51,474 nucleotides of DNA from sequence record MZ501090; one strand, given 5' to 3'. The number at the start of each line of letters is the position of its first letter. Positions within the stretch are counted from its first letter, which is position 1. Under the pieces are notes generated by a model that saw only the letters and a list, made by a program, of their open reading frames with translations, searched no databases and was not told where the DNA came from. This DNA comes from Escherichia phage KarlJaspers. Below are positions 5,876 through 51,474 of this stretch, piece after piece. Both the position numbers and the translations under genes were made by a program.

Positions 5876-5889
5876 TATTTGGGGTTATC

Positions 5890-6361: not shown

Positions 6362-6407
6362 CATTGTGGCGTTACATACTAACAGCCTTTATATATGGAG
6401 GAAGAAA

Positions 6408-7382: not shown

Positions 7383-7394
7383 TCGTATAACATT

Positions 7395-7425
7395 GGGGAA
7401 TCCTTAACTGGATTCCCTTTTTTTA
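7395..7425 (+). terminator. rho-independent terminator
   Basis: GGGGAATCC-ttaact-GGATTCCC hairpin followed by TTTTTTTATT. Confidence 0.85.
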
Positions 7426-7439
7426 TTGGAGGTTATGAA

Positions 7440-7712: not shown

Positions 7713-7759
7713 TAAAGAGGGCGCTATAAGCGCCCTTTGTCATATCTGGAGGAAACACA

Positions 7760-9368: not shown

Positions 9369-9373
9369 AAATT

Positions 9374-10036: not shown

Positions 10037-10040
10037 TAAC

Positions 10041-10066
10041 AAGGGGCGTTGCGCCCCTTTTTTTGT
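10041..10066 (+). terminator. rho-independent terminator
   Basis: AAGGGGCG-ttg-CGCCCCTT hairpin followed by TTTTTTT. Confidence 0.85.
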
Positions 10067-10102
10067 TACTGTACAATCATGATACACGATTCATAATCAA
10101 TT

Positions 10103-10122
10103 CTTTTAACAAAAAGTGCTAT
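10103..10122 (-). promoter_or_regulatory. conserved intergenic motif copy, reverse orientation
   Basis: CTTTTAACAAAAAGTGCTAT on + strand directly before RBS of 10136 gene. Confidence 0.5.
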
Positions 10123-10135
10123 CAAGGAGAAAGAA

Positions 10136-10453
10136 ATGTCAAAAATGAAATTGACGATTGGGCCGCTTCCTGACTTTAAATTACCAGTGAAATTTGCAAT
10201 GCCTAACGGAGAAGATCAAACAATTATCTTCACAGTTCGCCACCGCAAAACAAGTGAGATTCACGAGCGCTACACGTCAGATACTCCAATGAGCGATGTT
10301 GAAATGATCACCTTCCTTGCTTCTGGTTGGAATCTTGATGATGAATTTAACGAAGAAAATATTAAACAGCTTCTTGATTACTACCCAGCAACAGCAATCG
10401 GATTAACTAGCGCATACATGAAAGCGCTTGCGGGGCAGCGAGTAAAAAACTAA
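10136..10453 (+). CDS. tail assembly chaperone (G-like)
   Basis: 105 aa ORF directly upstream of tape measure; ends at slippery A_AAA_AAC. Confidence 0.6.
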   Translation: MSKMKLTIGPLPDFKLPVKFAMPNGEDQTIIFTVRHRKTSEIHERYTSDTPMSDVEMITFLASGWNLDDEFNEENIKQLLDYYPATAIGLTSAYMKALAGQRVKN

Positions 10454-10764
10454 AAAGGGCGGTTTACCTGTTTTATCAGAAACCGCCGACAGATGCAGAG
10501 CTTGAGGCTGTTGGCCTTACAAGGGCAGACTATGAAGGAGAAGATCCGCCAGAGGTTATATTTGATGAAAGCATGATGCAATCATGGGATATATTTTGCG
10601 CAATGCAAACGCAATGGAGATGTTCTGGCGGTGGAGCTTACGGATTTGATTATAATGTCTTGCCTATGCTTTTTGAGATTTACAAGGTTGAGGATCGCGA
10701 GATGGCGCTAAACGACTTGCGAATCATGGAGCAAAAAGCACTTGAAATGATGCATTCAAAATAA
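10136..10764 (+). CDS. tail assembly chaperone GT-like fusion via -1 frameshift
   Basis: -1 frame stays open from 10450 to stop at 10764; slippery heptamer 10444-10450; hairpin 7 nt downstream. Confidence 0.5.
10444..10487 (+). other. putative programmed -1 ribosomal frameshift site (slippery heptamer + stem-loop)
   Basis: A_AAA_AAC in G frame, then GGCGGTTT-14 nt loop-AAACCGCC stem. Confidence 0.5.
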
Positions 10765-10786
10765 GCGCCTACGGGCGCTTTTTTAT
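10764..10786 (+). terminator. rho-independent terminator
   Basis: AGCGCC-tacg-GGCGCT hairpin followed by TTTTTT. Confidence 0.7.
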
Positions 10787-10803
10787 TACCTGGAGGATTA
10801 ATA

Positions 10804-13476: not shown

Positions 13477-13532
13477 TAGTGAAACTTGAGCAATTCAAAT
13501 GGTGCACGCAAACGCAAGGAGGCGGCGGCACT

Positions 13533-13829
13533 ATGACCACATCAAATAACGACAGGGAAATCTCATTTGGTAATGGTTACACGCAGGTTGCGTCAGGAGG
13601 GTTTAACACTGTACGCAGGGAGTTTTCCATTGTCTATGTGGGTAATGATTACCGAGATGTTGTTGACTTCCTGAATGGTCACAGGTTGAAGCCGTTTTTA
13701 TGGTTTATGCCTGACGGTCAACCTGGTCTATTCAGGGTGAAATCTGGTAGCGTTGGATTGACTCCAATATCAGCAACTGTTCAGGAAGTGAAAGCAACAT
13801 TTACTGAGCAATTTACATCAATGCAATAA
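13533..13829 (+). CDS. minor tail protein (lambda M-like, putative)
   Basis: ATG 13533 with AAGGAGG RBS (track ORF begins at GTG 13473); about 98 aa; first gene after tape measure. Confidence 0.45.
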   Translation: MTTSNNDREISFGNGYTQVASGGFNTVRREFSIVYVGNDYRDVVDFLNGHRLKPFLWFMPDGQPGLFRVKSGSVGLTPISATVQEVKATFTEQFTSMQ

Positions 13830-13832
13830 TTC

Positions 13833-13857
13833 AAGCCGCCTTTGTGCGGCTTTTTTA
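13833..13857 (+). terminator. rho-independent terminator
   Basis: GCCGC-ctttgt-GCGGC hairpin followed by TTTTTT. Confidence 0.7.
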
Positions 13858-13890
13858 TTGATGATACAATGCACGAAAGGAGGTGCAATT

Positions 13891-14652
13891 ATGGCTAATG
13901 AAACAACAGGTCGCGCGGATCTTGAAAATTGTCTGCAAAGCCTTTACCCTGGCGAGATTATCACGCTAATTGAGATTGACGGCACAAAGTTTGGCGCAAA
14001 CATTTACCGCATACACAATGAGAATATCTCATACACTGCGGAAGAATTATTACAGGCGCGAGAAACTGGAGTTCTTCCGCCGAAAGAGATTACATTCCGT
14101 GGTGAGGTTTACGGCGCTCGCCCGTTCGGAATATCTGGAATAAACTTCACAAGCAACGGAAAGGCTGATAAGCCACAATTGATACTATCAAACCTTGATA
14201 GCCAGGTGAGCGCGATGATTCGTAACTTTAACGGCATGATGCAAGCAAAGGTGACAATATGGATCACGCCAGCCGAATTGATGGGAAAAGATGGTAGCAT
14301 TAAAGATGGTGCTTCAAGAAGGCTGGTTTATTACATTGAACGACCAAGCCATTACAATAGAATGATGGCAAAATTTGATCTGACATCGCCTTATGATATG
14401 GATGGAATAATGATTCCTCCGCGAATAACTCAAAGCGTTTGTTATTGGGCGCAGCGTGGATGGTATCGAAGCGGAAAAGGTTGCGGATACAATGGATCGC
14501 GAATGTTTGATAAAGACAACAATCCTGTAACAGATCCATCTCAAGACTTTTGCGCCGGAACTGTAACAGCGTGCAAACTTCGTTTTGGTGCAGATCAGCA
14601 GCTTGATTTTGGCGGCGCACCAGTAGCAAGCCTGTTAAGGAGAAGTCAGTGA
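13891..14652 (+). CDS. minor tail protein (lambda L-like)
   Basis: ATG 13891 with AAGGAGG RBS; C-terminal cysteine cluster (CYWAQ...GCGYNG...FCAGTVTAC) like the Fe-S site of lambda gpL. Confidence 0.65.
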   Translation: MANETTGRADLENCLQSLYPGEIITLIEIDGTKFGANIYRIHNENISYTAEELLQARETGVLPPKEITFRGEVYGARPFGISGINFTSNGKADKPQLILSNLDSQVSAMIRNFNGMMQAKVTIWITPAELMGKDGSIKDGASRRLVYYIERPSHYNRMMAKFDLTSPYDMDGIMIPPRITQSVCYWAQRGWYRSGKGCGYNGSRMFDKDNNPVTDPSQDFCAGTVTACKLRFGADQQLDFGGAPVASLLRRSQ

Positions 14653-15383
14653 TGATTAGTGCAAAAATAAAACTTGAAATAATGCAGCACGTAAAAGATG
14701 AATACCCGCGCGAGGCGTGCGGTGTTATCACTCAAAAGTCGCGGGTACAGAAATATCACCGCATCACCAACGTGCATGATGATCCTGAAAATCATTTTGA
14801 AATGGATGCGGTTGAATACGTTGAAGCGTGTGAAAGTGGAGAGCTTATTGCTGTTGTGCATAGCCATACTGGAGACGGGGCAAGCACAATTCCAAGCGCA
14901 CATGATACATGCATGTGTGATGAAATGGGCGTTTCATGGATTATTGTTTCATGGCCTGAAGGCGACATGAGAATCATTGAGCCTGAATCTCGTCCATTGA
15001 TTGGTCGTCCGTGGTCGCTTGGGGCATATGATTGCTGGGGTCTTATTATGGCATGGCACAAGCAACATGGCGTTATCCTGAATGATTTCAGGAAACCATA
15101 TGAATGGTGGAAGCCTGAGCACGGCGAAAATCTTTACCAGGAAAATTATCTGAAAGAGGGTTTTGTTGAAACAGGAGAGCCGCCAAAACCTGGTGATATG
15201 GTTATCTTCCAGCTTTCCGCGCCAGTGTGGAATCATGCAGGCATTTATCTTGGCAACAATCAGTTGCTTCATCATGCCTTTGGTAAGTTGTCGAGGGTTG
15301 ATTTGTATTCTGGATGGTATCAGGAACATGCAAAAATGGTTTGTAGACATAAGGATCTGAAATATGACTTTGAAGGTAATTAA
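14652..15383 (+). CDS. tail tip assembly protein (lambda K-like; JAB/MPN + NlpC/P60)
   Basis: EACGVI...HSHTGDGASTIPSAHD JAMM-like motif and DCWGL NlpC/P60-like Cys. Confidence 0.75.
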   Translation: MISAKIKLEIMQHVKDEYPREACGVITQKSRVQKYHRITNVHDDPENHFEMDAVEYVEACESGELIAVVHSHTGDGASTIPSAHDTCMCDEMGVSWIIVSWPEGDMRIIEPESRPLIGRPWSLGAYDCWGLIMAWHKQHGVILNDFRKPYEWWKPEHGENLYQENYLKEGFVETGEPPKPGDMVIFQLSAPVWNHAGIYLGNNQLLHHAFGKLSRVDLYSGWYQEHAKMVCRHKDLKYDFEGN

Positions 15384-15960
15384 ATTATCTGGATCTTTAG
15401 GCCGAAGATTTGGAGTATTTCATAAGCTGGCTGTTGATTCATACCCCGAAGCAATACGCGCACTATCTTCGCAGGTGGAAGGATTCAAGGACTACATGCA
15501 AAGCGAAGTAGGATCGCGAATGCGTTATGCTGTATTTGTTGACGGTAATAATGTAGGACAGCACGATGAAAAATCGTGGCAATGCGCAAAGGAAGTGAGG
15601 ATTATTCCAATCCCAACAGGTTCAAAGTCTGGCGGGTTGTTTCAGGTTGTTCTTGGCGCGGTTATTATGGCGACTGCATTTTTCACTGGCGGCGCTTCAC
15701 TTGCTTTGATGGGCGCTTTTGCATCTTCTGCTTTCATGATGGGTGGTGCTATGGTGCTTGGCGGAGTAATGCAAATGATTTCACCGCAGCAAGGAGGATC
15801 AAGATTGTCCTCACAGTCAGCAGAAAACAAACCGTCTTATGCTTTCGGTGGCGCTGTTAACACAACGGCAGCAGGATACCCAATACCATTGCCATATGGT
15901 CAAAGGACCGTTGGGGGAGCTATCTGGTCGGCTGGCAGCTATGCAGAAGATAAGGCTTAA
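15364..15960 (+). CDS. tail assembly protein (lambda I-like)
   Basis: 198 aa, overlapping K-like gene; Gly/Ala-rich hydrophobic C-terminal half; synteny. Confidence 0.6.
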   Translation: MTLKVIKLSGSLGRRFGVFHKLAVDSYPEAIRALSSQVEGFKDYMQSEVGSRMRYAVFVDGNNVGQHDEKSWQCAKEVRIIPIPTGSKSGGLFQVVLGAVIMATAFFTGGASLALMGAFASSAFMMGGAMVLGGVMQMISPQQGGSRLSSQSAENKPSYAFGGAVNTTAAGYPIPLPYGQRTVGGAIWSAGSYAEDKA

Positions 15961-15968
15961 TATAAAAG

Positions 15969-15996
15969 AGTCGCGCGTTGCGCGGCTTTTTTTTTG
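15969..15996 (+). terminator. rho-independent terminator
   Basis: GC-rich hairpin (GTCGCGCG-ttg-CGCGGC) followed by TTTTTTTTT. Confidence 0.8.
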
Positions 15997-16040
15997 CCCG
16001 TATAATTCAACAAATCAAATAGCACAAAAGGTGAAAAAGC

Positions 16041-19000
16041 ATGGCTGAAAATATGATAACGGGCAGTAAGGGTGGATCATCAAAACCTTATGTGCCGAAA
16101 GAGATGGAAGATAACCTGATCTCAATCAACAAAATCAAAATCCTTCTTGCCGTTTCCGATGGTGAGTGCGATCCAGATTTCACGCTTCGCGATCTGTATC
16201 TCGATGATGTTCCGGTAATTGCAGATGATGGAACTGTTAACTATCAGGGTGTGAAAGCTGAATTTCGACCCGGAACGCAGACGCAAGATTACATCCAGGG
16301 GTTTACTGACACATCAAGCGAAGTGACGCTGGCGCGTGACATTACGACGACAAATCCTTATGTAATTTCCGTAACCAACAAAACATTATCGGCTATCAGA
16401 ATCAAAATGCTAATGCCAACAGGCATTAAGCAAGAGGATAACGGCGATCTTGTCGGCGTTAAGGTTACTTATGCTGTTGATATGGCTGTTGACGGAGACT
16501 CTTACAAAGAGGTATTGCTAGACACTATCGAAGGTAAAACGCGTTCCGGTTACGACAGAAGCCGGAGGATTGACCTTCCGGCATTTAATGATCGCGTATT
16601 ACTTAGGGTTAGAAGGGTTACGGCAGACAGCACATCTTCTCGTGTTACTGATCTGATTAAACTACAAAGTTACGCTGAGGTTATTGATGCAAAATTCCGT
16701 TATCCTCTGACTGGTCTTGTTTACGTTGAATTTGACAGCGAATTGTTCCCAAATCAGATCCCTAACATTTCAATCAAGAAGAAATGGAAGCTGATTAACG
16801 TTCCGAGTAACTACGATCCTGTTTTGAGAGAGTATCACGGTTCATGGGATGGAACATTCAAAAAAGCATGGTCAAATAATCCAGCATGGGTGCTTTATGA
16901 CATTATCACAAACCAGCGATATGGATTAGATCAGCGAGAGCTTGGTGTGCAGGTTGACAAATGGAGTCTTTACGAAGCGGCGCAATACTGCGATCAGAAA
17001 GTGCCGGACGGAAAAGGCGGCACAGAGCCGCGTTATCTATGCGACGTTGTGATTCAAAGCCAGATTGAGGCTTATCAGCTTATTCGTGATATTTGCTCAA
17101 TCTTCAGAGGCATGAGCTTTTGGAATGGAGAGAGCTTGTCAATCGTCATTGATAAGCCGCGCGATCCGTCGTACATCTTCACAAATGACAATGTTGTTGA
17201 TGGTGATTTTCAGTACACAACAGCAAGTGAAAAGAGCATGTACACGCAGTGCAACGTGACGTTCGATGACGAACAAAACATGTATCAACAGGACGTAGAG
17301 GGTGTATTCGACACAGAGGCCGCATTGCGATTTGGATACAATCCTACAAGCATAACCGCGATCGGATGTACACGCAGGAGTGAGGCTAATCGGCGCGGTC
17401 GATGGATACTAAAAACCAACTTGCGCAGCACTACGGTAAACTTTGCTACTGGACTGGAAGGCATGATCCCATCAATAGGTGATGTGATTGCTATTGCTGA
17501 CAATTTTCACAGCAGCAACCTTAAATTAAACCTATCAGGGCGCGTGATGGAAGTTTCCGGCTTGCAGGTGTTCGTTCCGTTTAAGATTGACGCGCGACCA
17601 GGTGATTTCATTATCATCAACAAGCCGGACGGAAAGCCAGTTAAGCGCACAATCTCAAAAGTAAGCGGTGACGGAAAAACCATTGAACTAAACATTGGGT
17701 TTGGGTTTGAAGTTAAACCTGACACGGTTTTTGCAATCGACCGCACTGATATTGCATTGCAGCAATACGTTGTAACGAGTATCGGCAAAGGTGATGATGA
17801 TGATGAATTTACATACTCCATCACGGCTGTTGAATATGACCCTAACAAATACGACGAGATTGATTATGGAGTAAACATTGACGACAGGCCAACTTCAATT
17901 GTCCAGCCTGACACAATGGCAGCGCCTGAAAATGTGCAAATATCCTCATACTCGCGAATTGTCCAGGGTGCAAGCGTTGAGACAATGGTTGTGTCGTGGG
18001 ATAAAGTACCTTACGCATCGCTGTATGAAATGCAATGGCGAAAAGGTGATGGCAACTGGCTGAATACACCACAGACCGCAAACAAAGAAATTGAGGTTGA
18101 AGGTATTTATTCAGGAAACTACCAGGTAAGGGTTAGATCTGTTTCCGCTTCAGGTTCTACGTCTCCGTGGTCCAGAATTGTGACAGCATCACTGACTGGT
18201 AAGGTAGGAGAGCCAGGCGCGCCAGTTAACTTAACCGCATCCGACAATGAAGTGTTTGGCATTCGTGTTAAGTGGGGGATGCCAGAAGGGAGCGGAGACA
18301 CGGCATACATTGAGCTTCATCAGTCGCCGGATGGAACGGCTGAAAACTCAAGCCTGCTAACGCTGATCCCGTATCCACAATATGAATACTGGCACGGTAC
18401 GCTTCCGGCTGGTCATGTTGTATGGTATCGGATCAGGAGCGTAGACAGGATCGGCAACGTTTCCGGTTGGACTGATTTTGTTAGAGGTATGGCTTCAGAT
18501 GATGTGGAGGCTGTTTTAGGAGATATTCTTGATAAGATTTTTGATACTGAAGCAGGTCAGGATCTTAAAGAGAACGCCATTGACAGTGCAAACAAGATAA
18601 AGGACCAGGCGCAAGCAATCATCCAGAATGCTCTTGCTAATGATGCTGATATTAAGTGGACGCGAGTACAAAATGGAAAGCGAAAGGCTGAATATGGTCA
18701 CGCGCTTGAGCTTATCGCCACAGAGACTGAGGCGCGAGTTACGCAGATTGAAGAATTGAGGGCGTCAATCGACGAGGATATTGTTTCAAGCATAAAGACA
18801 GTGCAGGAGGCTATCGCCACAGAATCTGAAACGCGAGCAACTCAAATAAATGCTTTGGATTCAAAATTCACAACTGAAATTGACGGTGTAAAACGCGATA
18901 CAGCCGCAAGCATTAATCAGGTTAATCAAACCATTGCCAATGAGTCAGAAGCGCGCGCGCAGGCCGTTAACGCGCTTGATGCGAAGTTCACAAAGGAGAT

Positions 19001-19619
19001 CGAAGATTTAAACGGAGTCATTAAGACTGAGGTTGAGGCTAACATCTCTGAAGTGAAACAGGCTATCGCTAACGAGACAGAGGCAAGGGTGCAGGCTGAC
19101 CAGGCGTTAACAGCTAAGTTTGGAGACGTTGAATCTGCATTAGCTCAAAAACTTGATTCGTGGGCTGGCGTTGATTCGGTTGGCGCTAAGTACGCCATGA
19201 AATTGGGCCTTACTTACAACGGGCAGAAGTACAGCGCAGGAATGGTAATGCAGCTTTCTCAGAGTTCATCCGGCCTTATCTCGCAAATTTTGTTTGATGC
19301 GAATAGGTTTGCGATTATGACTAGCTCGACTGGCGGAGTGTATACGCTGCCTTTCGTTGTTGAAAATAACCAGGTATTCATCAATAGCTTGTTAGTTAAA
19401 AACGGATCAATAAACAATGCGATGATCGGTAACTTCATCCAATCAAACAATTACGTTTGGAATCAAACAGGATGGAGGTTGGATAAAAACGGCACGTTTG
19501 AAAATTATGGTTCTACTCCTGGAGAGGGAGCCATGAAAATGACAAACGAAACGATCAGCGTTAGGGATGCAAACGGCGTTTTGCGTGTTCAGATTGGGCG
19601 TATCACAGGTTATTGGTAA
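16041..19619 (+). CDS. tail tip / host-specificity protein (lambda J-like)
   Basis: 1192 aa; position after M-L-K-I; central repetitive region and C-terminal coiled-coil repeats (TETEARxxQ...). Confidence 0.85.
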   Translation: MAENMITGSKGGSSKPYVPKEMEDNLISINKIKILLAVSDGECDPDFTLRDLYLDDVPVIADDGTVNYQGVKAEFRPGTQTQDYIQGFTDTSSEVTLARDITTTNPYVISVTNKTLSAIRIKMLMPTGIKQEDNGDLVGVKVTYAVDMAVDGDSYKEVLLDTIEGKTRSGYDRSRRIDLPAFNDRVLLRVRRVTADSTSSRVTDLIKLQSYAEVIDAKFRYPLTGLVYVEFDSELFPNQIPNISIKKKWKLINVPSNYDPVLREYHGSWDGTFKKAWSNNPAWVLYDIITNQRYGLDQRELGVQVDKWSLYEAAQYCDQKVPDGKGGTEPRYLCDVVIQSQIEAYQLIRDICSIFRGMSFWNGESLSIVIDKPRDPSYIFTNDNVVDGDFQYTTASEKSMYTQCNVTFDDEQNMYQQDVEGVFDTEAALRFGYNPTSITAIGCTRRSEANRRGRWILKTNLRSTTVNFATGLEGMIPSIGDVIAIADNFHSSNLKLNLSGRVMEVSGLQVFVPFKIDARPGDFIIINKPDGKPVKRTISKVSGDGKTIELNIGFGFEVKPDTVFAIDRTDIALQQYVVTSIGKGDDDDEFTYSITAVEYDPNKYDEIDYGVNIDDRPTSIVQPDTMAAPENVQISSYSRIVQGASVETMVVSWDKVPYASLYEMQWRKGDGNWLNTPQTANKEIEVEGIYSGNYQVRVRSVSASGSTSPWSRIVTASLTGKVGEPGAPVNLTASDNEVFGIRVKWGMPEGSGDTAYIELHQSPDGTAENSSLLTLIPYPQYEYWHGTLPAGHVVWYRIRSVDRIGNVSGWTDFVRGMASDDVEAVLGDILDKIFDTEAGQDLKENAIDSANKIKDQAQAIIQNALANDADIKWTRVQNGKRKAEYGHALELIATETEARVTQIEELRASIDEDIVSSIKTVQEAIATESETRATQINALDSKFTTEIDGVKRDTAASINQVNQTIANESEARAQAVNALDAKFTKEIEDLNGVIKTEVEANISEVKQAIANETEARVQADQALTAKFGDVESALAQKLDSWAGVDSVGAKYAMKLGLTYNGQKYSAGMVMQLSQSSSGLISQILFDANRFAIMTSSTGGVYTLPFVVENNQVFINSLLVKNGSINNAMIGNFIQSNNYVWNQTGWRLDKNGTFENYGSTPGEGAMKMTNETISVRDANGVLRVQIGRITGYW

Positions 19620-19625
19620 AAGCAA

Positions 19626-19653
19626 AGGGAGGCGCATTGCCTCCCTTTTTTTA
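19626..19653 (+). terminator. rho-independent terminator
   Basis: AGGGAGGC-gcatt-GCCTCCCT hairpin followed by TTTTTTT. Confidence 0.85.
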
Positions 19654-29935: not shown

Positions 29936-30409
29936 TTAGCAATTAGTGCTTTCAGGTTTATACAGGAATCCGCCAGGTTCATAATCTGACATTCTTACCA
30001 CTCGCAACATTTCACGCTTATCACATCTCTTTGTGAGCGGTTTGCCATTGGAATCAAATCGCAGGTCTGGACGACAGAATGATGCGCGATAGCCTTGACA
30101 TCCATATTTTTTGTAATCGTTATGCACCTTTTGAGCGCCAGCGGCTGAAATCATACCGCGAACGCGCCACTGATTTACAGTTTGCTGGCTAACGTTAAGA
30201 CGTTTTGCCATTGCTGACACGCTTCCGTAATACTCAATAAGGATGTCAAGTCGCGCTTTTAGTCCGGCGCGCACTTCATCTTTTAAAACATAGTATCCCG
30301 TAGGGCGCTTGCGCTTCTTCTTATCCTTTCCTCTTCGAGTTCCGTTATTGCCATTAATTGTGCGCTTGTCAATCTTGCCTGTTGATACTGCGATTCGTTG
30401 CTCTTTCAT
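29936..30409 (-). CDS. HTH DNA-binding protein (putative transcription regulator)
   Basis: 157 aa; basic N-terminus; helix-turn-helix-like SVSAMAKRLNVSQQTVNQW. Confidence 0.5.
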   Translation of the reverse strand: MKEQRIAVSTGKIDKRTINGNNGTRRGKDKKKRKRPTGYYVLKDEVRAGLKARLDILIEYYGSVSAMAKRLNVSQQTVNQWRVRGMISAAGAQKVHNDYKKYGCQGYRASFCRPDLRFDSNGKPLTKRCDKREMLRVVRMSDYEPGGFLYKPESTNC

Positions 30410-44777: not shown

Positions 44778-45668
44778 ATGTTAAAACTTGCTAACATTAA
44801 ATTCCCGATCACCTTCGAATCTCGCGGCGTTGGTCACTTCATGTTTTCCGACAAAAATACATGCACTAAGTTTAACGAATACGGAAAGCCTGATGTTTCA
44901 ACAATGGAGATTGAGCACCTCATTGATGCGCACAATAAGCACTACAACTCGCTTAAAGACTATGGCTACGCAATGCCAGGCTATACATGTTTTCACTACA
45001 AGCCATATAAGGGCCAGGTGTTACCAGTGCGCTCACCGGAACGCGCAGAGATTCCGATGGTCGAGATGAAAACCTGCGACTATAAAAAATTGTGGTGCTT
45101 AAGAGTGGATAACATCAAGTATCCGATCACGTTCTACACGGCTGGTAATTCAACGATTCGCTTCACATCGCGCGAAAATGGCGTTTATAGCGATGGTACG
45201 AAATCAGAGTTGAAAGTTGATTTCTTTGTCAATGGTCACAACAAATTCAATCCGCACAACGAAGAGGATAAGGTTTACTACGTGGAAGACATTACAAAAC
45301 ACTTGTTTGGAGATGCGCCAATTGGCGGCGGGAAGACGTCAATTCAGCAAATCATTGGCGAGGAGATCCACAAGGCAGCCGTTAAAATGAAAGCACCTGT
45401 AGGCTGGCGTATTGACAAGAGCGCCTTTGCATATCAAGAAATCGTAACGCAGGGCAAAATTGAAGATATGCCGCTTGGCGCTTCAATCATCGGCATCAGA
45501 GACAATAACGGCGACTGGAATGATGTTTCATTCCCTGTCAAGCGGATCGAGTTGCACGAAGACCTGATTTGCATCCTGGCGCATCATGGCAGCTATAAGG
45601 ACAAGCCATTCGCCGCCGAGCTTAACATCAAGCGCGGAACTATGGTTAAGTGGAAAGTCAAAGTGTAA
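44778..45668 (+). CDS. hypothetical protein with internal duplication
   Basis: 296 aa; NIKFPITFESRG (N-terminus) repeated as NIKYPITFYTAGN about 100 residues later. Confidence 0.45.
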   Translation: MLKLANIKFPITFESRGVGHFMFSDKNTCTKFNEYGKPDVSTMEIEHLIDAHNKHYNSLKDYGYAMPGYTCFHYKPYKGQVLPVRSPERAEIPMVEMKTCDYKKLWCLRVDNIKYPITFYTAGNSTIRFTSRENGVYSDGTKSELKVDFFVNGHNKFNPHNEEDKVYYVEDITKHLFGDAPIGGGKTSIQQIIGEEIHKAAVKMKAPVGWRIDKSAFAYQEIVTQGKIEDMPLGASIIGIRDNNGDWNDVSFPVKRIELHEDLICILAHHGSYKDKPFAAELNIKRGTMVKWKVKV

Positions 45669-45688
45669 ATAGCACGAATTGTTAAAAC
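45669..45688 (+). promoter_or_regulatory. conserved intergenic motif copy (GAATT variant)
   Basis: ATAGCACGAATTGTTAAAAC; GGCC...TATAAT...GGCC downstream. Confidence 0.55.
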
Positions 45689-45741
45689 TCAAATGTGGGG
45701 CCAGGTATAATGGCCTCACTTTCAACGAAGGAGATAAAACG

Positions 45742-45960
45742 ATGTACATTAGCAAGAAGATGAAATGCGTTTCCGTTAATTATGGTTGTGCTGGAATGTT
45801 CAAGCCTGGCGAAATCTATACGGCGCAAAAACTGAAATCATCAACCGGATCCTTTTACGTCAGCAACAGCAAAGGGCATCGCATGTTCCTGAACGGAGGT
45901 GAAGGCACTAAGGTTATGGCACACGCTATGGTAATTGCTGAATTTGAGGAAGTGAAATAA
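45742..45960 (+). CDS. hypothetical protein
   Basis: ATG 45742 with AAGGAG RBS; 72 aa. Confidence 0.4.
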   Translation: MYISKKMKCVSVNYGCAGMFKPGEIYTAQKLKSSTGSFYVSNSKGHRMFLNGGEGTKVMAHAMVIAEFEEVK

Positions 45961-46499
45961 TGAAAAAATACGAATTTGAACTTTGGGGCAGCAAATACCA
46001 TTTTTCCACTAGCAAGCCGATTGTTATCGTTGACCTGGACGGAACGTTATCAGACGGAACGCATCGCTTACACCTTCTTCCGACAGAGGATTTACACCTT
46101 ACAGAAAGCTGGTCTGAGTTCAATAAGGCGGCTGTTGGCGATTCGCCGATTAAGAGCACTGTTGCAGTGGTTAACGGTTTGTGGATGTCAGGATTTGCCA
46201 TCGTTATCCTGACCGGACGTAGCGATGAAGTGATGGAGGACACCTGCAAATGGATTAACGAAAACGGCATCAAGTACGATGCGTTAATCATGCGCCGCAA
46301 GGAAGACAACCGCAAAGACACAATCATCAAAGAAGAAGTCTTGCGCGCTATCGGACTGGAAAACATTGTGTGCGCTTTTGATGATTCGCCGAACGTGGTT
46401 AAGCACTTCCGAAGCCTGGGAATCACAACCTATCAGGTCACGGAATACGACAAGCCACACAATCATATCCAATCGCATGGCGTGGAGGAATTGAAATGA
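45960..46499 (+). CDS. HAD-family phosphatase (T4 Pnk phosphatase-domain-like)
   Basis: DLDGT motif I, TGR motif II, RKDTIIKEEVL and FDDSP; resembles T4 Pnk phosphatase (recalled from memory). Confidence 0.55.
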   Translation: MKKYEFELWGSKYHFSTSKPIVIVDLDGTLSDGTHRLHLLPTEDLHLTESWSEFNKAAVGDSPIKSTVAVVNGLWMSGFAIVILTGRSDEVMEDTCKWINENGIKYDALIMRRKEDNRKDTIIKEEVLRAIGLENIVCAFDDSPNVVKHFRSLGITTYQVTEYDKPHNHIQSHGVEELK

Positions 46500-46657
46500 C
46501 CTGGATTCTATTTGTGATTATCACAAGCTACAATTCAGCCGCCATTGAGTCTCGCGAGTTCCACGGTGAATCAAGATGTCAGGCCGCGAGAGAGCAAGTA
46601 ATTTTGCATATGTCAGATAACGATAAAGAAGTTGAAGTATTCTGCATTCGTAAATAG
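46496..46657 (+). CDS. hypothetical small protein (53 aa)
   Basis: ORF below track cutoff; hydrophobic N-terminus WILFVIITSY; stop TAG inside motif copy. Confidence 0.3.
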   Translation: MTWILFVIITSYNSAAIESREFHGESRCQAAREQVILHMSDNDKEVEVFCIRK

Positions 46658-46673
46658 CACTTTTTGCAAAAAC
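46654..46673 (+). promoter_or_regulatory. conserved intergenic motif copy (variant)
   Basis: ATAGCACTTTTTGCAAAAAC; GGGCTT...AAGCCC hairpin enclosing TATAGT downstream. Confidence 0.55.
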
Positions 46674-46728
46674 AGATTGTCGGGCTTGCGGTATAGTAAG
46701 CCCATCGACAACAAACGAGGATTAAATC

Positions 46729-46992
46729 ATGGTTAATAAAGTTGAGTTTTTCAAAGCGGTAGACAAGATTGACGGCGCGCCAAGTTTCTTTGCTATCCAT
46801 TCCATTGACGGCGAAGACGTTGAATACAACGTGATTAGTCGAGACGGTATATCAAAACTTAGTGACCTGGTGGGTTATATTGTGGCGAACGGGAAATGTG
46901 CATGGCCCGATTCACCACGAGAGCCGCGCCGCCGCGACATGCAAAATCCAGTTCTGCTTTACACGCTGGTAATTGAAGTAGTCAACAAATGA
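46729..46992 (+). CDS. hypothetical protein
   Basis: 87 aa with GAGGA RBS. Confidence 0.4.
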   Translation: MVNKVEFFKAVDKIDGAPSFFAIHSIDGEDVEYNVISRDGISKLSDLVGYIVANGKCAWPDSPREPRRRDMQNPVLLYTLVIEVVNK

Positions 46993-47174
46993 TTTGGTTA
47001 CTTGTATTTTTAGTAGTTTTCTTTTATATTTCAGGCTTATTCATCTTCCGCGCATTGGTTAAAGAGTGTGATTGCACTGATAAAGATCAGCCTCTTGTTC
47101 TGATGTTCTGGTTTGTGTGGTTTTGGGTGGCGCTTTACCAGATTGTACGGGATGAAAGCGGTTTTAAGTGGTGA
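46989..47174 (+). CDS. small membrane protein (two predicted TM helices)
   Basis: 61 aa; LLVFLVVFFYISGLFIF and LVLMFWFVWFWVALY hydrophobic stretches. Confidence 0.4.
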   Translation: MIWLLVFLVVFFYISGLFIFRALVKECDCTDKDQPLVLMFWFVWFWVALYQIVRDESGFKW

Positions 47175-47229
47175 TTCTTACTATAGCGCATTCACGCAGT
47201 GCGCTATGTTGAGATAACAACAGGAGTTC

Positions 47230-47367
47230 ATGAAGATGCGAAACTTCGAAAAAATCGTAACCAAGAAAAAGCGCTACAGCTACGACGAGCACCGCGAGAT
47301 GAATCAACGCTATCGCAAGAAGCGCCAGCGCACAGGTAAACATTCAAGCAGATATGGAGAAAACTAA
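47230..47367 (+). CDS. hypothetical small basic protein (45 aa)
   Basis: CAGGAG RBS; Lys/Arg-rich; stop adjoins kinase start; not in ORF track. Confidence 0.3.
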   Translation: MKMRNFEKIVTKKKRYSYDEHREMNQRYRKKRQRTGKHSSRYGEN

Positions 47368-47368
47368 T

Positions 47369-47959
47369 ATGAAGCGAGACATTATCATCCTTAACGGACC
47401 GCCAGGAGTTGGCAAGGATACGCTTGCGGCATACTTAACTGGCCATCGTTACGCAGCCGTTAAAGCGTCGTTTAAGCAACCGATGTTTGATATTGCATTC
47501 TCCATGCTTGGCGTTTACCTATATGACGAGTTCATTGATCTGTATAACGACCGCGAGCAGAAAGAAAAGCCTCAAGCAATCTTGCAAGGCAATTCGCCTC
47601 GCAAGTTCATGATCTGGATTAGCGAAGAAGTCATGAAGCCAGCTTTTGGCGAGCAATATTTCGGAAATCGCATGGTTGAGCAAGTACACGAGATGTACAG
47701 AGATTTGGCTGTTGTAATTAGTGATGGCGGATTCCCTGAAGAAATCAAGCCGCTCGTTAAGGCAGGCCATGAAGTTCACATTTGCCGACTGCATCGCGAA
47801 GGATTCACGTTTGATGGCGATTCGCGAAACTATATTGACCTGAGCGGATACCATCACCGAGTCAAGCATTACGACTTCACAATGATTGATGGCGAGCCAG
47901 AAAAGACTGTTGACGAGATCATCAAAACGGTGCAGTGGAAACACACAAAGATTGAATAG
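47369..47959 (+). CDS. P-loop nucleotide kinase (dNMP kinase-like, putative)
   Basis: Walker A GPPGVGKDT near N-terminus; ATG 47369 preferred over 47354 (GGAG 9 nt upstream). Confidence 0.5.
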   Translation: MKRDIIILNGPPGVGKDTLAAYLTGHRYAAVKASFKQPMFDIAFSMLGVYLYDEFIDLYNDREQKEKPQAILQGNSPRKFMIWISEEVMKPAFGEQYFGNRMVEQVHEMYRDLAVVISDGGFPEEIKPLVKAGHEVHICRLHREGFTFDGDSRNYIDLSGYHHRVKHYDFTMIDGEPEKTVDEIIKTVQWKHTKIE

Positions 47960-47975
47960 CACGAATTGCTAAAAG
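47956..47975 (+). promoter_or_regulatory. conserved intergenic motif copy (GAATT variant)
   Basis: ATAGCACGAATTGCTAAAAG overlapping stop TAG; TATAAT downstream. Confidence 0.5.
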
Positions 47976-48029
47976 CGGGGCACAATGCCTCGCTATAATA
48001 CAAACACCAATCAACGAGAGGAAATCATC

Positions 48030-48431
48030 ATGGTAGAGTTAAACGACATTCGCGTTGGGACAAAATTTCGCGTAACCTGGGCAGATAAATATTGCGGAGT
48101 TAGCAAGGGCCAGATTGTTACTGTGGATAGTATTTATCGCGGATGCAGCAAAGACTTTCGGCGCCCACGCATCAAGAATGGCTATATCATTACTCGCCGT
48201 TTTGGGTTTGATCATTATTGCGTAGTGTCAACTCAAGGCGCTTTGATTGAGCTTAAGCGAATAAGCGATCATCGCGGCTGTCATGTTAAGACAATGAAAA
48301 CACCATTTCAGCGAGCGCGATACGATGCGCGACGGATGCGCCGACTTGCTCGAAATGCGATCAAGTTCAAAAAGCCTGGCAGTAATTTTTACAGAATGTA
48401 CAAAGGGATTGCGCGAAATGCTGGGAAATAA
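48030..48431 (+). CDS. hypothetical protein
   Basis: ATG 48030 with GAGAGGAAA RBS; basic C-terminus. Confidence 0.4.
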   Translation: MVELNDIRVGTKFRVTWADKYCGVSKGQIVTVDSIYRGCSKDFRRPRIKNGYIITRRFGFDHYCVVSTQGALIELKRISDHRGCHVKTMKTPFQRARYDARRMRRLARNAIKFKKPGSNFYRMYKGIARNAGK

Positions 48432-48530
48432 CAACAACGCAACCAATCCAAAGCCGCCATTTGATTTTCATGAAATCATGATTGTGTTATTCTTGATTCT
48501 CTTAGTTGTTTATTCAGTGAGGGCCGCAAT

Positions 48531-48794
48531 ATGGTTTTTAATGCACTAAAACGAATCTTTAAACCTGAATACCGGATCGTTGCTTGCACAGAATGTAAGA
48601 TTTATTACCTGCAACGCCGCCGCGTTATTAGTGGGGATTGTGAATATCTAACTGATGATGCTTTCGGATTTTGGGCTATGGAGTTCAATAGCTACAGCGA
48701 AGCGCGTGAATACGCTAAAAAGTTGCACAAGTTCAGACCTTACAAGCTGCGTTTGCTGGTTGTCAAAAAATGCGATGTGTGGGATCACGAATGA
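48531..48794 (+). CDS. hypothetical protein
   Basis: 87 aa ORF. Confidence 0.35.
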   Translation: MVFNALKRIFKPEYRIVACTECKIYYLQRRRVISGDCEYLTDDAFGFWAMEFNSYSEAREYAKKLHKFRPYKLRLLVVKKCDVWDHE

Positions 48795-48970
48795 AAAGAG
48801 TAATTATCATTTTTATTGCCGTTATCGCTGGTTGTTACCTGGCTTATAATTATAGCGGCATTGTTGAGTCAATCGGCGGGTTGATTATCTTCATGGCTGG
48901 TGGGTATGCTGGCTATTGTGATGGATTCGAGAACGGAAAGCGTTACGTGCTGACCGGAAAAAAGAAGTAA
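48791..48970 (+). CDS. small membrane protein
   Basis: MKRVIIIFIAVIAGCYLAY and GGLIIFMAGGYAGY hydrophobic segments. Confidence 0.35.
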   Translation: MKRVIIIFIAVIAGCYLAYNYSGIVESIGGLIIFMAGGYAGYCDGFENGKRYVLTGKKK

Positions 48971-49013
48971 TGTTAACCGCGCCGCTTCGGTGGCGCTAAA
49001 AGGAGGAAACAAA

Positions 49014-49301
49014 ATGGCTAAAAGCAATCGTAAAATGTTGATTAACGCATTCGAAAAGGAAGCGCTTGAGCGTGGTTGGAATGACTCATTTCACACAGCA
49101 AACTGTATCCGCCGTTACGGATTCAAGGATTGCCGATCCTGGGCGCGTCAAATGGCTTCATGGTATGATCTTGATGCGCATTACCTTGATATGGATTGCG
49201 CCCTGGTTGAAATGATTGAGCAGGCCGCACTAGAGGATCGACCATTAACGCAATCTGATTTTGACGATTTTGTGCGCGATGAAATCTATTACATGAGCTA
49301 A
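49014..49301 (+). CDS. hypothetical protein
   Basis: ATG 49014 with AAAGGAGGAAA RBS; 95 aa. Confidence 0.45.
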   Translation: MAKSNRKMLINAFEKEALERGWNDSFHTANCIRRYGFKDCRSWARQMASWYDLDAHYLDMDCALVEMIEQAALEDRPLTQSDFDDFVRDEIYYMS

Positions 49302-49320
49302 TAGCACTTTTTGTTAAAAC
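49301..49320 (+). promoter_or_regulatory. conserved intergenic motif copy
   Basis: ATAGCACTTTTTGTTAAAAC overlapping stop TAA. Confidence 0.55.
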
Positions 49321-49376
49321 TTCCGCGAGGGCATTTGTTAAAGTGTCCTCATTGAAGCGAAACAGAGTAAATCAAA

Positions 49377-49589
49377 ATGAAAATTCGAATCACCAGGGTT
49401 GACATTGACCGTAACGACGGAAGCATTACCCTTGAACAATGTGGATTCAAAGTTGGTGACATTGTAGAGGTTGACGGATTCTTTCGCGATGGTTCTTACT
49501 GCGTGTTAGCAATCCGCAACACGGAAGAAATTCGAATCGGTGATAACATCGGCGTAAACCATGACGAATGCGAGGTAGTAGAGGAATGA
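49377..49589 (+). CDS. hypothetical protein
   Basis: 70 aa ORF. Confidence 0.4.
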   Translation: MKIRITRVDIDRNDGSITLEQCGFKVGDIVEVDGFFRDGSYCVLAIRNTEEIRIGDNIGVNHDECEVVEE

Positions 49590-49894
49590 TCACGATTAAC
49601 CTTTCAGAAGAGCAAGCAAAGAAACTCCTGCATGCTGTAGGTTCTCGTGCGCTTTGCGGATCAACTGATGAAATGATGATTGATCATGAGGTTGCAAGAG
49701 AGCTTTTTACTCAGCTTGAGCAAAAATTCTCACCACGTCCGACTGACGCGGCAGAAACCGCAAAATGGCTTGCTGAGAATGGATACACGGCTTTAAAAGT
49801 TCATAACTGGAAGCGAAAGAATGAAAGCATGGAGTCGGCATTTGCCAATTACGCCAAATCAGTTGCAAAGCAGGTAACGGAGAAATATAAATGA
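49586..49894 (+). CDS. hypothetical protein
   Basis: ATG 49586 overlapping previous stop (ATGA), GAGGTAGTAGAGGA upstream. Confidence 0.4.
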   Translation: MITINLSEEQAKKLLHAVGSRALCGSTDEMMIDHEVARELFTQLEQKFSPRPTDAAETAKWLAENGYTALKVHNWKRKNESMESAFANYAKSVAKQVTEKYK

Positions 49895-50205
49895 TTTACA
49901 TTCACTACTACCATATCGGGACAAACGAAAACAAGCAGGAGCGCAGAACAATTTGTGACACACTCGACGATGCTAAAGCACAGCAACGCGTTTTGGGTGG
50001 TGTAATTCAGGCTTTTGAGCCAGTGGAAGACATAGAGCACCGAGAGCATTTGAAAGAGATTATTGTTGATGAAATTTCATCACTAATCGACGACATGACA
50101 AATCACGGTCCTGGTTCTACGTGGGAAGAAGCTGGATCGACGGAGTGGGATTGTGCTAAGGTTGCAACGCTTAACAACTTTCGTGAGTTGCTCGACGATT
50201 TTTAA
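49891..50205 (+). CDS. hypothetical protein
   Basis: 104 aa ORF, coupled start. Confidence 0.4.
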   Translation: MIYIHYYHIGTNENKQERRTICDTLDDAKAQQRVLGGVIQAFEPVEDIEHREHLKEIIVDEISSLIDDMTNHGPGSTWEEAGSTEWDCAKVATLNNFRELLDDF

Positions 50206-50215
50206 TTAAAATTGA

Positions 50216-50260
50216 ATGCCTCATACAGCGAACAGGACGCATTTTGACGAGGCATTTTTT
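50216..50260 (+). terminator. terminator-like hairpin
   Basis: ATGCCTC...GAGGCAT stem with long loop followed by TTTTTT. Confidence 0.45.
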
Positions 50261-50275
50261 AGGTAAGGTGATTCA

Positions 50276-50404
50276 ATGGATAGCTACATAAAACCGTCGC
50301 AGTGGTGCGCACAGAAGCAAGAGGAAGCATTGGAGCGCGGCGATACTGAAACAGCAATGCACTATTTCGAAATGTACAACTTGTGGAAGGGTAGAGGTCT
50401 GTAA
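50276..50404 (+). CDS. hypothetical small protein (42 aa)
   Basis: AAGGTGA RBS; stop overlaps next ATG; not in ORF track. Confidence 0.3.
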   Translation: MDSYIKPSQWCAQKQEEALERGDTETAMHYFEMYNLWKGRGL

Positions 50405-50634
50405 TGTTTGGAATGAATGAGGCGCAATTCAACGCTGCAAAACGCCAGGCTAAGAAGTGCGGCGAGGCAATGAAGGCGGATGTTGAAAAGCGCGGGAAGT
50501 ATGTTGATGAAGTCATGAAGGGCATTATTGCCGAACATTATCAGCCAGTTGCGCCAATGCTGACAATTACCCAATTCATCTGGTTGTGTGGTTATCTTCG
50601 TGGGAGATGGGGAAACGCATTTGACCGCGAATGA
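50404..50634 (+). CDS. hypothetical protein
   Basis: 76 aa ORF. Confidence 0.4.
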   Translation: MFGMNEAQFNAAKRQAKKCGEAMKADVEKRGKYVDEVMKGIIAEHYQPVAPMLTITQFIWLCGYLRGRWGNAFDRE

Positions 50635-50663
50635 TTGACAACGATTTCCTGATTGGTTAGCAT
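50635..50663 (+). promoter_or_regulatory. sigma70-like promoter
   Basis: TTGACA - 17 nt - TAGCAT. Confidence 0.5.
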
Positions 50664-50669
50664 ATTCAA

Positions 50670-50770
50670 CGTTTACATAAGAGCGGCATTAGTGCCGAAC
50701 GGGTGGCGCGGTTGCCACGCAACAACGGCGATATGCAGGTTTTTACCGTAAGACGTATCGCCTTTTTTTT
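50670..50770 (+). ncRNA. candidate small RNA or leader/attenuator (three hairpins ending in terminator)
   Basis: Downstream of promoter: CGGCA...TGCCG, GTGGC...GCCAC, GGCGATA...TATCGCC + TTTTTTTT; no ORF. Confidence 0.3.
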
Positions 50771-50782
50771 ATAGGTGAATAT

Positions 50783-51016
50783 ATGGAAAAGTACAAATTA
50801 ACTTTCATGTTTAATAGCATGGTGATGAATCCATTAAATGGTTACGCTTGCAATAGCTTTTCTGTTACCGTTAATGAGGATGAAATTGATGATGATGGAA
50901 AACTCATTCGAATTGGTGAATACTTGTACCCCGTTCACAATATCAATTGCATCAAACGCGAGATCGTAAAAGATGAAGTACAAGGTAAGGTTGACGATCA
51001 GGCGAATGGGGCGTAA
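50783..51016 (+). CDS. hypothetical protein
   Basis: 77 aa ORF with AGGTGA RBS. Confidence 0.4.
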   Translation: MEKYKLTFMFNSMVMNPLNGYACNSFSVTVNEDEIDDDGKLIRIGEYLYPVHNINCIKREIVKDEVQGKVDDQANGA

Positions 51017-51158
51017 TTGCTCGTCATGTAGACAAAGTTTTGAATGTGAGGTTGAAGCGCGCGGAGAGCTTGAGGCAGCAGCAAGAGCAAAAGAGTTGTC
51101 CGGCGCTAATCAAGACACTCACCAGTTTTCAATAGATCTTGTAAGGAAAATGTCATGA
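50973..51158 (+). CDS. hypothetical protein (start uncertain)
   Basis: 61 aa ORF overlapping previous gene in a different frame. Confidence 0.25.
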   Translation: MKYKVRLTIRRMGRNCSSCRQSFECEVEARGELEAAARAKELSGANQDTHQFSIDLVRKMS

Positions 51159-51394
51159 GTTCTGTAATTATTGGTTTGGTTGCTTTAATCATTGGTGTTC
51201 TAATCGGCTTTGTTGCTGTATCTTTCGTGGTGGCTGTCGGTGTTCGCTATAAGTCAAAAAAAGGTGAATTTGCTTTAGCGTTTTGGGATGAAGAACAGAA
51301 AGTTTGGCAGGTTCGCGGTCACTATTTATCAATCGGTGGCAGGATTCACAGCACTATGAAGACAAATCCAGAAAAAGTAAAATACAAGTATTGA
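51155..51394 (+). CDS. small membrane protein
   Basis: 79 aa; N-terminal TM helix VIIGLVALIIGVLIGFVAVSFVVAV; AAGGAAA RBS. Confidence 0.45.
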   Translation: MSSVIIGLVALIIGVLIGFVAVSFVVAVGVRYKSKKGEFALAFWDEEQKVWQVRGHYLSIGGRIHSTMKTNPEKVKYKY

Positions 51395-51401
51395 ACAACT
51401 A

Positions 51402-51425
51402 CCCGCCAAATGGCGGGTTTTTTAT
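51402..51425 (+). terminator. rho-independent terminator
   Basis: CCCGCC-aaat-GGCGGG hairpin followed by TTTTTTAT. Confidence 0.8.
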
Positions 51426-51474
51426 TGCCTGCAATTTGTCTATAATGAGGCTTTGTTATAAAGGAGGGCGCATT

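Follow-up and report, generated by a model that had tools for sequence, protein, structure and literature searches.

The genome of Escherichia phage KarlJaspers contains, shortly upstream of its terminase genes, what is close to certain to be a real, conserved and strand-specific structured RNA with its own promoter, ending here in a hairpin followed by a U8 tract. Its best reading is as a leader that heads a short operon flanked by the block of early small genes on one side and the terminase genes on the other. The original prediction had assumed a genuine RNA element, and this premise is borne out by the strand-specific and covarying structure, by a conserved promoter of its own and, within the clade, by a conserved hairpin and U-tract. 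The element had also been regarded as local to one phage; it is instead a family-wide module. The RNA family appears undescribed, its kind being that of a phage promoter-proximal leader or of a small RNA with an intrinsic terminator.

The window, that is the whole stretch of 51,474 nucleotides that was analysed, is a complete T1-type phage genome, Hanrivervirus-like, and its last 1.3 kb are 95-99% identical to the Hanrivervirus phages phiE31-2, pSf-1 and Henu8. terS begins at window position 1 and the ORFs between 43430 and 51394 are all on the + strand. The element is located downstream of the ipe gene region and about 0.7 kb before terS (Table 1); the gene upstream of it, ipe, encodes a protein of 76 aa homologous to T1p59 and to 'Ipe' of mEp021, and ends with a TGA stop codon (50632-50634) that adjoins the -35 box. 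An ipe-type gene is present in 834 phage records, and the ipe homologue served as an anchor to gather about 100 loci across Drexlerviridae. Ipe proteins beside the element are only 33-57% identical between genera. The 166-nt region itself matches 129 phage records, 61 of them at 80-99% identity and 68 at 60-80%. In the temperate phage mEp021, from which the name 'ipe' originates, dam directly follows ipe and the element is absent.

Table 1. Features of the element and of the genes that follow it, in window coordinates.
Feature	Position	Strand	Remarks
sigma-70-type promoter	50635-50663	+	-35 TTGACA 50635-50640, 17-nt spacer, -10 TAGCAT 50658-50663
conserved CTGATTGG in promoter spacer	50649-50656	+	family form CTGAYYGG
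13-nt single-stranded 5' motif GUUUACAUAAGAG	50671-50683	+	starts 7 nt after -10; unpaired in consensus fold
hairpin hp1 CGGCA-UUAG-UGCCG	50684-50697	+	5 bp, covarying
linker AACGG between hp1 and hp2	50698-50702	+	family consensus (G)AACGnG
hairpin hp2 GUGGC-GCGGUU-GCCAC	50703-50718	+	5 bp, hexaloop GCGGUU
A-rich single-stranded linker GCAACAAC	50719-50726	+	between hp2 and hp3
hp3 terminator stem, DNA GGCGATATG/CGTATCGCC, RNA GGCGAUAUG/CGUAUCGCC	50727-50762	+	fold and covariation
U8 tract	50763-50770	+	directly 3' of hp3 stem
AUAGGUGAAUAU between U8 and ATG	SD GGTGA 50774-50778; ATG 50783	+	
ORF, 77 aa	50783-51016	+	first after U8
ORF, 61 aa	50973-51158	+	phrog_2919
ORF, 79 aa	51155-51394	+	DUF7299, E=6.5e-27 (Pfam family)
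canonical terminator ACCCGCC-AAAU-GGCGGGU-U6	51401-51418	+	end of transcription unit
terminator then TATAAT ahead of terS	51401-51446	+	terminator scan and relatives

The promoter had been part of the original prediction and lies exactly where it was placed, TTGACA-17-TAGCAT scoring 10/12 against the consensus in a promoter scan. Taken alone, this match is within chance expectation, four promoter-like matches being observed in 45000-51474 vs 12.6 expected from shuffles. Folding energy alone is not unusual either (z-score -2.0; 8/200 shuffles fold equally well). Neither the promoter match nor the fold energy is exceptional by itself; the significance of the element rests on conservation and covariation across the 129 matching phage records and the roughly 100 loci gathered. 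A search pattern (TTGAC and a -10 hexamer separated by 16-19 nt, then (G/T)TnnAC after a further 6-8 nt) recovered the promoter and the RNA 5' motif as a module at set spacing in 98/107 sequences, which come from several genera and represent 82 distinct versions, and TTGAC(A/G)-17-(-10) stands constantly 7 nt ahead of the conserved RNA 5' motif. From the promoter geometry, the transcript is predicted to start at G50671 +/-1.

Covariation was apparent already in a six-way alignment, with compensatory changes in all three stems. In the core formed by hp1 and hp2 (29 sequences, alignment A3), 90.9% of the cells are paired vs 22-55% when the partners are slid by 1-3 columns, two-sided changes affect 9/10 pairs, and the covariation score was reached by 0/500 shuffles. 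Two-sided changes are found in 5/5 pairs of hp1, the three outer ones varying for example as CG:15/GC:10, GC:14/CG:13 and GC:17/UA:9; the inner two pairs are weaker (the fifth pair accounts for 19 of the 26 unpaired cells of the helix). In hp2 all cells (100%) are paired, with two-sided changes in 4/5 pairs, and the loop starts with a conserved (G/A)CG. The unpaired segments are conserved as well. The 5' motif has the family consensus GUnnAC-A(U/C)AAGAG, and its positions U2, A5, C6, A9 and A12 are invariant in A3, as are the AA and both G positions of the linker that separates hp1 from hp2. Almost all positions of the 5' motif vary somewhere in the wider family, where variants such as ACAUAAGAG, ACACAAGAG and ACAUACGAG occur. 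The linker between hp2 and hp3 is kept as CA(A)CAAC within the Hanrivervirus/Warwickvirus/Henuseptimavirus clade.

The third hairpin was aligned in 20 full-length sequences of this Hanrivervirus/Warwickvirus/Henuseptimavirus-like clade. Its stem has 9 bp, 5 of them G-C, and the hairpin folds alone at -13.8 kcal/mol; the 18-nt loop is atypically large and partly structured (an inner C-G pair and a GG/CC helix) and contains the conserved motif CCGUAAGA. In the alignment 99.5% of the cells are paired, with compensatory change in 6/10 pairs. One pair is a U.G wobble in 15/20 sequences and C-G in the remaining 5/20, and overall 23 cells are G.U or U.G wobbles vs 1 unpaired. Since wobble pairs turn into A.C mismatches on the opposite strand, the hp3 structure is that of the + strand RNA, and + is also the direction of the promoter and of the U-tract. 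A U-rich tract follows hp3 in 20/20 clade members, ranging from U5-U9 down to interrupted forms such as UUCUUUCC, and the U tail is as short as 4 nt in some relatives (UUUUAA). With a stable G+C-rich stem and a U-tract directly next to it, hp3 and U8 are predicted to complete an intrinsic terminator, and its 3' end would give an RNA of about 98-100 nt. Our terminator scan allows loops of 3-8 nt and missed hp3 because its loop exceeds 8 nt. The two short GC hairpins and the terminator hairpin with its run of 8 T, as first described from this genome, are all found at their positions; a correction applies to 50783, which had been given as the RBS of the next gene and is its ATG start codon, 12 nt past the end of the U-tract.

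Other identities were sought for the element and for its parts. Rfam 15 gave 0 matches at gathering scores over the whole window, and at E<=10 only a chance snoRNA match in 50560-50860; ARAGORN detected 0 tRNA or tmRNA genes in the window. We found no homologue of the element in 5,426 complete E. coli genomes, only a 31-nt chance match among PLSDB plasmids, and no publications on ncRNAs, promoters or transcript maps of Drexlerviridae. Several further structural or motif proposals showed no covariation and were dropped: pairing of the 5' GUnnAC with GUAAGAC or with the pre-RBS region, a pseudoknot between the AACGnG linker and the hp2 loop, a kissing interaction of the hp2 loop with the CCGUAA loop, a K-turn in hp3, mini-ykkC-like ACGR loops, and an ops-like GGCGGTA in Klebsiella phages.

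A covariance model built from the core alignment, R1, finds a single copy in the window (50671-50730, 71 bits; next match 8.5 bits) and a single copy in T1, at 7624-7681 (48.5 bits) in the unannotated gap between ST58 and ST57; with filters off, R1 found no second copy in either genome. Scores are 48-73 bits in Tlsvirus, Tunavirus, Kyungwonvirus and related clades and 11-25 bits in Rogunavirinae and Webervirus, where the element has diverged, and the same layout was judged by eye to be present in Braunvirinae (IMM-001) and L072. The core is distributed, as one copy per genome located past the ipe gene region and ahead of terS, over Tempevirinae, T1 and Kyungwonvirus and, in more diverged form, over Rogunavirinae, Braunvirinae and Webervirus. 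The family plan runs from a promoter with a CTGAYYGG spacer through GUnnAC-AyAAGAG, hp1, AACGnG and hp2 to a variable middle and a last hairpin with (C/G)GUAA at the end of its loop, some 10 nt ahead of the next feature (hairpins with a CNTAA loop were counted by a crude, unevenly strict script and serve as examples only).

It is at the 3' end that the clades differ. In the clade of the window the last leader hairpin is lengthened and a U-rich tract is added, and from the sequences compared the U-tract terminator is specific to this one clade. The leader of Tlsvirus-like phages, T1 and Shfl1 has a hairpin of 5 bp at its end (of the form GCGGG-AACCGUAA-CCCGC in the Tlsvirus type), followed by the RBS without a U-tract, and in Rogunavirinae, L101, L103, L105, L072 and IMM-001 phage tRNA genes come directly after the leader. 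In every clade examined, the leader lies just upstream of either the RBS of a variable first gene or tRNA genes. BEK1-23 and JakobBernoulli carry a different ORF immediately behind the U-tract, and at about 50767 the nucleotide similarity to relatives whose downstream gene is another one ceases; in T1 and Shfl1 the upstream neighbour is a T1p58 homologue, not ipe. Since the downstream gene is swapped after the T-run and the upstream neighbour differs in T1, the promoter-leader(-terminator) behaves as a portable unit. And since the 5' platform (the 5' motif, hp1, linker and hp2) persists where the terminator is absent, its conserved function cannot be the control of hp3-U8 alone.

Three ORFs separate the U8 tract from the terminator that closes the transcription unit. 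No + strand promoter-like site was found between 50664 and 51474, and the three ORFs should for this reason depend on read-through of hp3-U8, which is predicted to be their sole route of transcription. In every clade examined, with relatives from Tlsvirus, Tunavirus, Kyungwonvirus, Webervirus, Warwickvirus and Rogunavirus, terS is preceded by a terminator of the same form and then a TATAAT-type hexamer, usually an extended -10 (TGn), and because this hexamer directly follows the conserved pre-terS terminator, terS probably has its own promoter. Further on, the 20-kb + strand late block contains 32 terminator-like sites vs 18.3+/-4.5 expected, with strong intergenic + strand terminators at 2118, 5852, 7395, 10041, 10763, 13833 and 19624, several late-block terminators running directly into the RBS of the next gene without a promoter; the T1 record has 11 annotated terminators between terS and cor. 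The annotations of T1 and Bas07 include no N- or Q-like regulator. The sole annotated 'transcriptional regulator' is a protein of 157 aa (29936-30409 in the window), whose N-terminus is very basic and which shows a weak Cro-like HTH.

We tentatively favour, at a little short of an even chance, a cis-acting leader or attenuator with a factor-binding 5' domain, whose main product would be the RNA of about 100 nt, which could also act in trans. In such a leader, host sigma-70 RNA polymerase would initiate at about G50671 and the first 50 nt or so would fold into a sequence-conserved platform. hp3 would fold by default, so that most transcripts would stop and the short RNA would be abundant, and the three ORFs at 50783-51394 would be made only by polymerases that pass hp3-U8. 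Because loops and linkers are conserved across genera and no fold competes with hp3, read-through is expected either to leak at a fixed level or to depend on a factor recognising the 5' platform, be it RNA polymerase itself or a protein of the phage or the host; in the latter case the logic would be that of nut/put or of lambda pR'-6S-tR'. We infer the transcription start, the efficiency of termination and the existence and identity of the factor.

The leader reading draws on the conserved, covarying module, on the constitutive hp3, on the same 5' RNA heading an operon in each clade, with or without a terminator, and, as context, on the many intrinsic terminators of the late block toward which the unit points. 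It has to accommodate that (i), there is no boxA or boxB on the transcribed strand, no similarity to put and no annotated N- or Q-like protein, (ii), terS has a TATAAT of its own, so that the late genes need not rely on the promoter at 50635 and, (iii) a promoter-RNA-terminator cassette with a U8 tail would suit a gene for a trans-acting sRNA equally well. A regulated leader controlling read-through into the last genes had been one of the two original proposals, and it gains support from the missing promoter before the downstream ORFs, the operon-heading position in all clades and the swapped first gene. What it loses is the two-state attenuator. The ensemble pair probability of hp3 is 0.98 in the window and 0.87-1.0 in 20/20 relatives, no conserved alternative helix competing with it was found among these 20, and there was no known aptamer match, so that hp3 appears constitutive and a riboswitch was rejected too. 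The hp2 loop does resemble the hp3 5' strand (GCGAUA), a likeness that is not kept across the clade.

Rather unlikely, in our estimate, is the reading in which the RNA of about 100 nt is a trans-acting phage sRNA that pairs through its unpaired 5' end with a host, less likely a phage, mRNA, probably with Hfq bound to the U8 tail and the AAC-AAC linker; in a variant, the RNA would sequester a host protein, and the downstream ORFs would be passengers expressed by leakage. The cassette does look like a gene, being about 100 nt long with a near-consensus promoter in front and a stable hairpin plus U8 behind, and its ends match mosaic breakpoints, on one side where the gene is replaced after the T-run and on the other where the T1p58 homologue stands upstream in T1 and Shfl1. 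Primary sequence is best conserved at the single-stranded 5' end, a pattern also shown by sRNAs with a 5' seed. Where the promoter and core directly precede tRNA genes, the site is a stable-RNA locus, and RNase P cleavage would free the leader. Several clades, however, lack the terminator and have the RNA simply as a 5' UTR, the U-tail length is not constant within the clade, and the variability of nearly every 5' motif position within the family speaks against the sRNA reading. Moreover, a search of the phage genome for antisense targets of the 5' motif (reverse complement, 1 mismatch) returned only the element itself, with about 10 chance matches expected, and complement matches to the CCGUAAGAC motif were at chance expectation in the phage genome.

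It is improbable that the element is passive punctuation, a strong promoter with hairpins that only stabilise the mRNA or tRNA precursor and a leaky terminator that closes the ipe operon and fixes a low downstream level without any factor. Transcripts coming from the + strand genes further upstream would run into hp3-U8 as well, given that the ipe stop abuts the -35 box, T1-type genomes are dense in terminators, terminator-promoter junctions recur in the window (e.g. 51401-51446 and 13833-13870), and hp3 is without sign of switching. A generic stabiliser, however, needs only a stem, and here GUnnAC..AAGAG, AACGnG, the (G/A)CG loop and CCGUAA are held across genera. RNase E senses 5' ends, and 5' stabilisers are not unpaired at the 5' end, unlike the element with its 13 unpaired nucleotides.

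A DNA-level signal (pac, origin or operator) or a small protein like that annotated as bas07_0089 is highly improbable: the CTGATTGG spacer could be an operator, the element is close to terS and a 35-codon CDS is annotated over it in Bas07 (G29-2 has a 5'-extended CDS), but the hp3 wobbles fit + strand RNA only, the T1 terminal repeat, where packaging starts, is at 1-2800 vs 7624 for the element, and the window and Bas07/BEK1-23 (about 94% identical) are out of frame with each other owing to an indel of 2 nt in the hp1 loop. The claim that the element holds no ORF was right in substance: a 32-codon TTG frame overlaps it (50653-50751), but relatives do not keep this frame, no ATG or GTG start with a conserved frame was found downstream of the predicted TSS in the window, and the changes in the stems are compensatory, not synonymous.

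The boldest reading, which we consider improbable, is that the 5' platform founds its own class of antitermination RNAs acting close to the promoter, with no relation to put or nut, and makes host RNA polymerase termination-resistant alone or together with some small T1-type protein. If this were true, polymerases that start at this single promoter would pass hp3-U8, the pre-terS terminator and at least seven late terminators over the packaging/head/tail block of about 20 kb; the platform would then act as the missing switch to late genes in T1-like phages, with the RNA of about 100 nt as the default, unmodified product, like lambda 6S RNA.

Drexlerviridae are among the commonest coliphages and Klebsiella phages and are used in defence screens (BASEL Bas01-13, SECphi27) and therapy collections. 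The element is the sole strongly conserved non-coding structure found at the junction between their early small genes and packaging genes, and it is unannotated or mis-annotated as a CDS. As a regulatory leader it would open a way into T1 gene control and supply a compact part made of promoter, leader and terminator; if it acts in trans, a virulent phage family would possess a conserved sRNA.

Among known systems, T4 species 1 and 2 (rnaC and rnaD) are stable small RNAs co-transcribed with phage tRNA genes. The element similarly shares its promoter with, and adjoins upstream, tRNA genes in Rogunavirinae, Braunvirinae, L072 and L101, but the window is without tRNA genes and the RNA here has a terminator of its own. 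The rrn leader (boxA/NusB-NusE) is comparable in that, in some clades, the element is a leader ahead of untranslated tRNA genes; it differs in that the transcribed strand of the element has no boxA. Hfq-dependent sRNAs of phages and prophages, such as DicF, IpeX and StxS, form another group. Like the element, they have a promoter of their own, are about 100 nt long and combine a conserved unpaired segment with a Rho-independent terminator whose U tail is long; the differences are that the phage here is virulent, that sister clades have the RNA as a 5' UTR, that it has no E. coli or plasmid homologue and that no target was found for it in the phage genome.

In the lambda pR'-6S RNA-tR' system, a strong constitutive sigma-70 promoter is followed within about 100-200 nt by an intrinsic terminator, and a short RNA is made by default. 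The element is alike in this arrangement, in its predicted short default RNA, in its strand, which points toward the packaging and structural genes, and in the read-through needed downstream. It is unlike lambda Q/pR' in that no TAnnnT pause element occurs in the initial transcribed GTTTACATAAGAG, that annotation, the one source consulted on this point, lists no Q-like product in T1 or Bas07, that terS here has its own downstream TATAAT and that the terminator is absent outside one clade; furthermore, lambda Q systems need no structured RNA, whereas the RNA here is structured and covarying. A nut site was rejected: the + strand has no CUCUU in 50671-50770, so no CGCUCUUA-like boxA, and hp2 has a hexaloop, GCGGUU, where boxB has a GNRA-like pentaloop. 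A boxA-like octamer, CGCTCTTA, occurs only on the minus strand, at 50685-50678, and in this clade only.

The put sites of HK022 are structured RNAs at or near +1 of a strong promoter, with unpaired conserved nucleotides and with terminators after them (PMC9378689). They are about 70 nt long and consist of two long bulged stems and a triplex, and no dedicated phage antiterminator protein is known for them (PMC9378689). Homology was sought and rejected (the best R1 match in HK022 has 5.7 bits, E=5.4, and a local alignment with putL scores 14, the shuffled mean being 14.0). HK022 has two copies of put and the element is single copy; the predicted +1 of the element precedes its pair of hairpins by 14 nt, and their stems have 5 bp vs the long bulged stems of put. 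In arrangement the element partly resembles put, with promoter-proximal stem-loops, conserved unpaired nucleotides and terminators in the same unit.

The promoter and RNA core of the element (the unpaired, predicted transcript start, or 5' motif, followed by hp1, a linker and hp2) mark the stable-RNA locus of Drexlerviridae: in several other clades of the family, the same promoter and core are followed directly by phage tRNA genes (see the table), whose number varies among these clades from one (Arg-CCU or Ser) up to six. About 10 nt upstream of the first tRNA, these loci carry a 5-bp hairpin whose loop reads AUUC(C/G)GUAA; in L108, the loop is AUGCGUAA and the hairpin is placed farther upstream. 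The window itself contains no tRNA gene. Two public coding sequences overlie or reach into the RNA element in relatives (bas07_0089 and G292_00023) and, because their reading frame is not conserved over it, both are probably mis-annotations. About 20 MG0656xx records titled 'Campylobacter phage' are 92-96% identical to the window over the element and its flanks; these records are probably mislabelled, or represent coliphage contaminants of those preparations.

Features in loci of relatives (coordinates local to each locus)
Feature	Locus	Position	Identifier
CDS over or into RNA element	L026	1238-1345	bas07_0089 (MZ501079 50517-50624)
CDS over or into RNA element	L001	3013-3315	G292_00023
tRNA after promoter and core	L035	2203-2278	
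tRNA after promoter and core	L096	2214-2289	
tRNA after promoter and core	L097	2203-2278	
tRNA after promoter and core	L103	2022-2176	
tRNA after promoter and core	L105	1994-2147	
tRNA after promoter and core	L101	2102-2189	
tRNA after promoter and core	L072	1907-2554	
tRNA after promoter and core	L108	3265-3340	
Pre-terS terminator and TATAAT-type hexamer	L031	2485-2530	
Pre-terS terminator and TATAAT-type hexamer	L034	2664-2710	
Pre-terS terminator and TATAAT-type hexamer	L030	2569-2615	

The 9-mer CTCTTATGT (50675-50683), obtained by reverse-complementing the 5' motif, has a single match in the 51.5 kb when both strands are searched with one mismatch allowed, namely the element itself (shuffled sequences, 10.1 ± 3.0). 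The rest of the genome may avoid the 5' motif, this being the single pattern tested. On the minus strand, 50685-50678 reads CGCTCTTA, identical to lambda boxA; we take this as a coincidence because that strand is not transcribed and the octamer is not conserved in other clades. The sole candidate regulator annotated in these phages is a 157-aa protein (29936-30409, minus strand), a homologue of the T1 ST23 'transcriptional regulator'. Its N-terminus is highly basic (TRRGKDKKKRKRP), and it matches Cro/YdaS-type HTH domains weakly, under Pfam cut-offs.

Terminator-like structures are found elsewhere in the window. At 50214-50265, 3' of the ORF at 49891-50205, there is a second hairpin with a large loop (AATGCCTC...GAGGCATT) and a T6 run after it; the 42-aa ORF and ipe (the gene just upstream of the element), which have no obvious promoter of their own, are therefore flanked by two terminator-like sites. 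Immediately before terS, a conserved terminator is directly followed by a TATAAT-type hexamer (51401-51446 for the pair), preceded in most relatives by TGn to give an extended -10, and this terminator-promoter junction is kept in all clades examined. Across the plus-strand packaging, head and tail block (1-19650), promoter-like sites are not enriched (26 vs 33) and intrinsic-terminator-like sites are (32 vs 18.3 ± 4.5 expected), with those at 2118, 5852, 7395 and 10763 directly followed by the next RBS; in the equivalent block of T1, 11 terminators are annotated.
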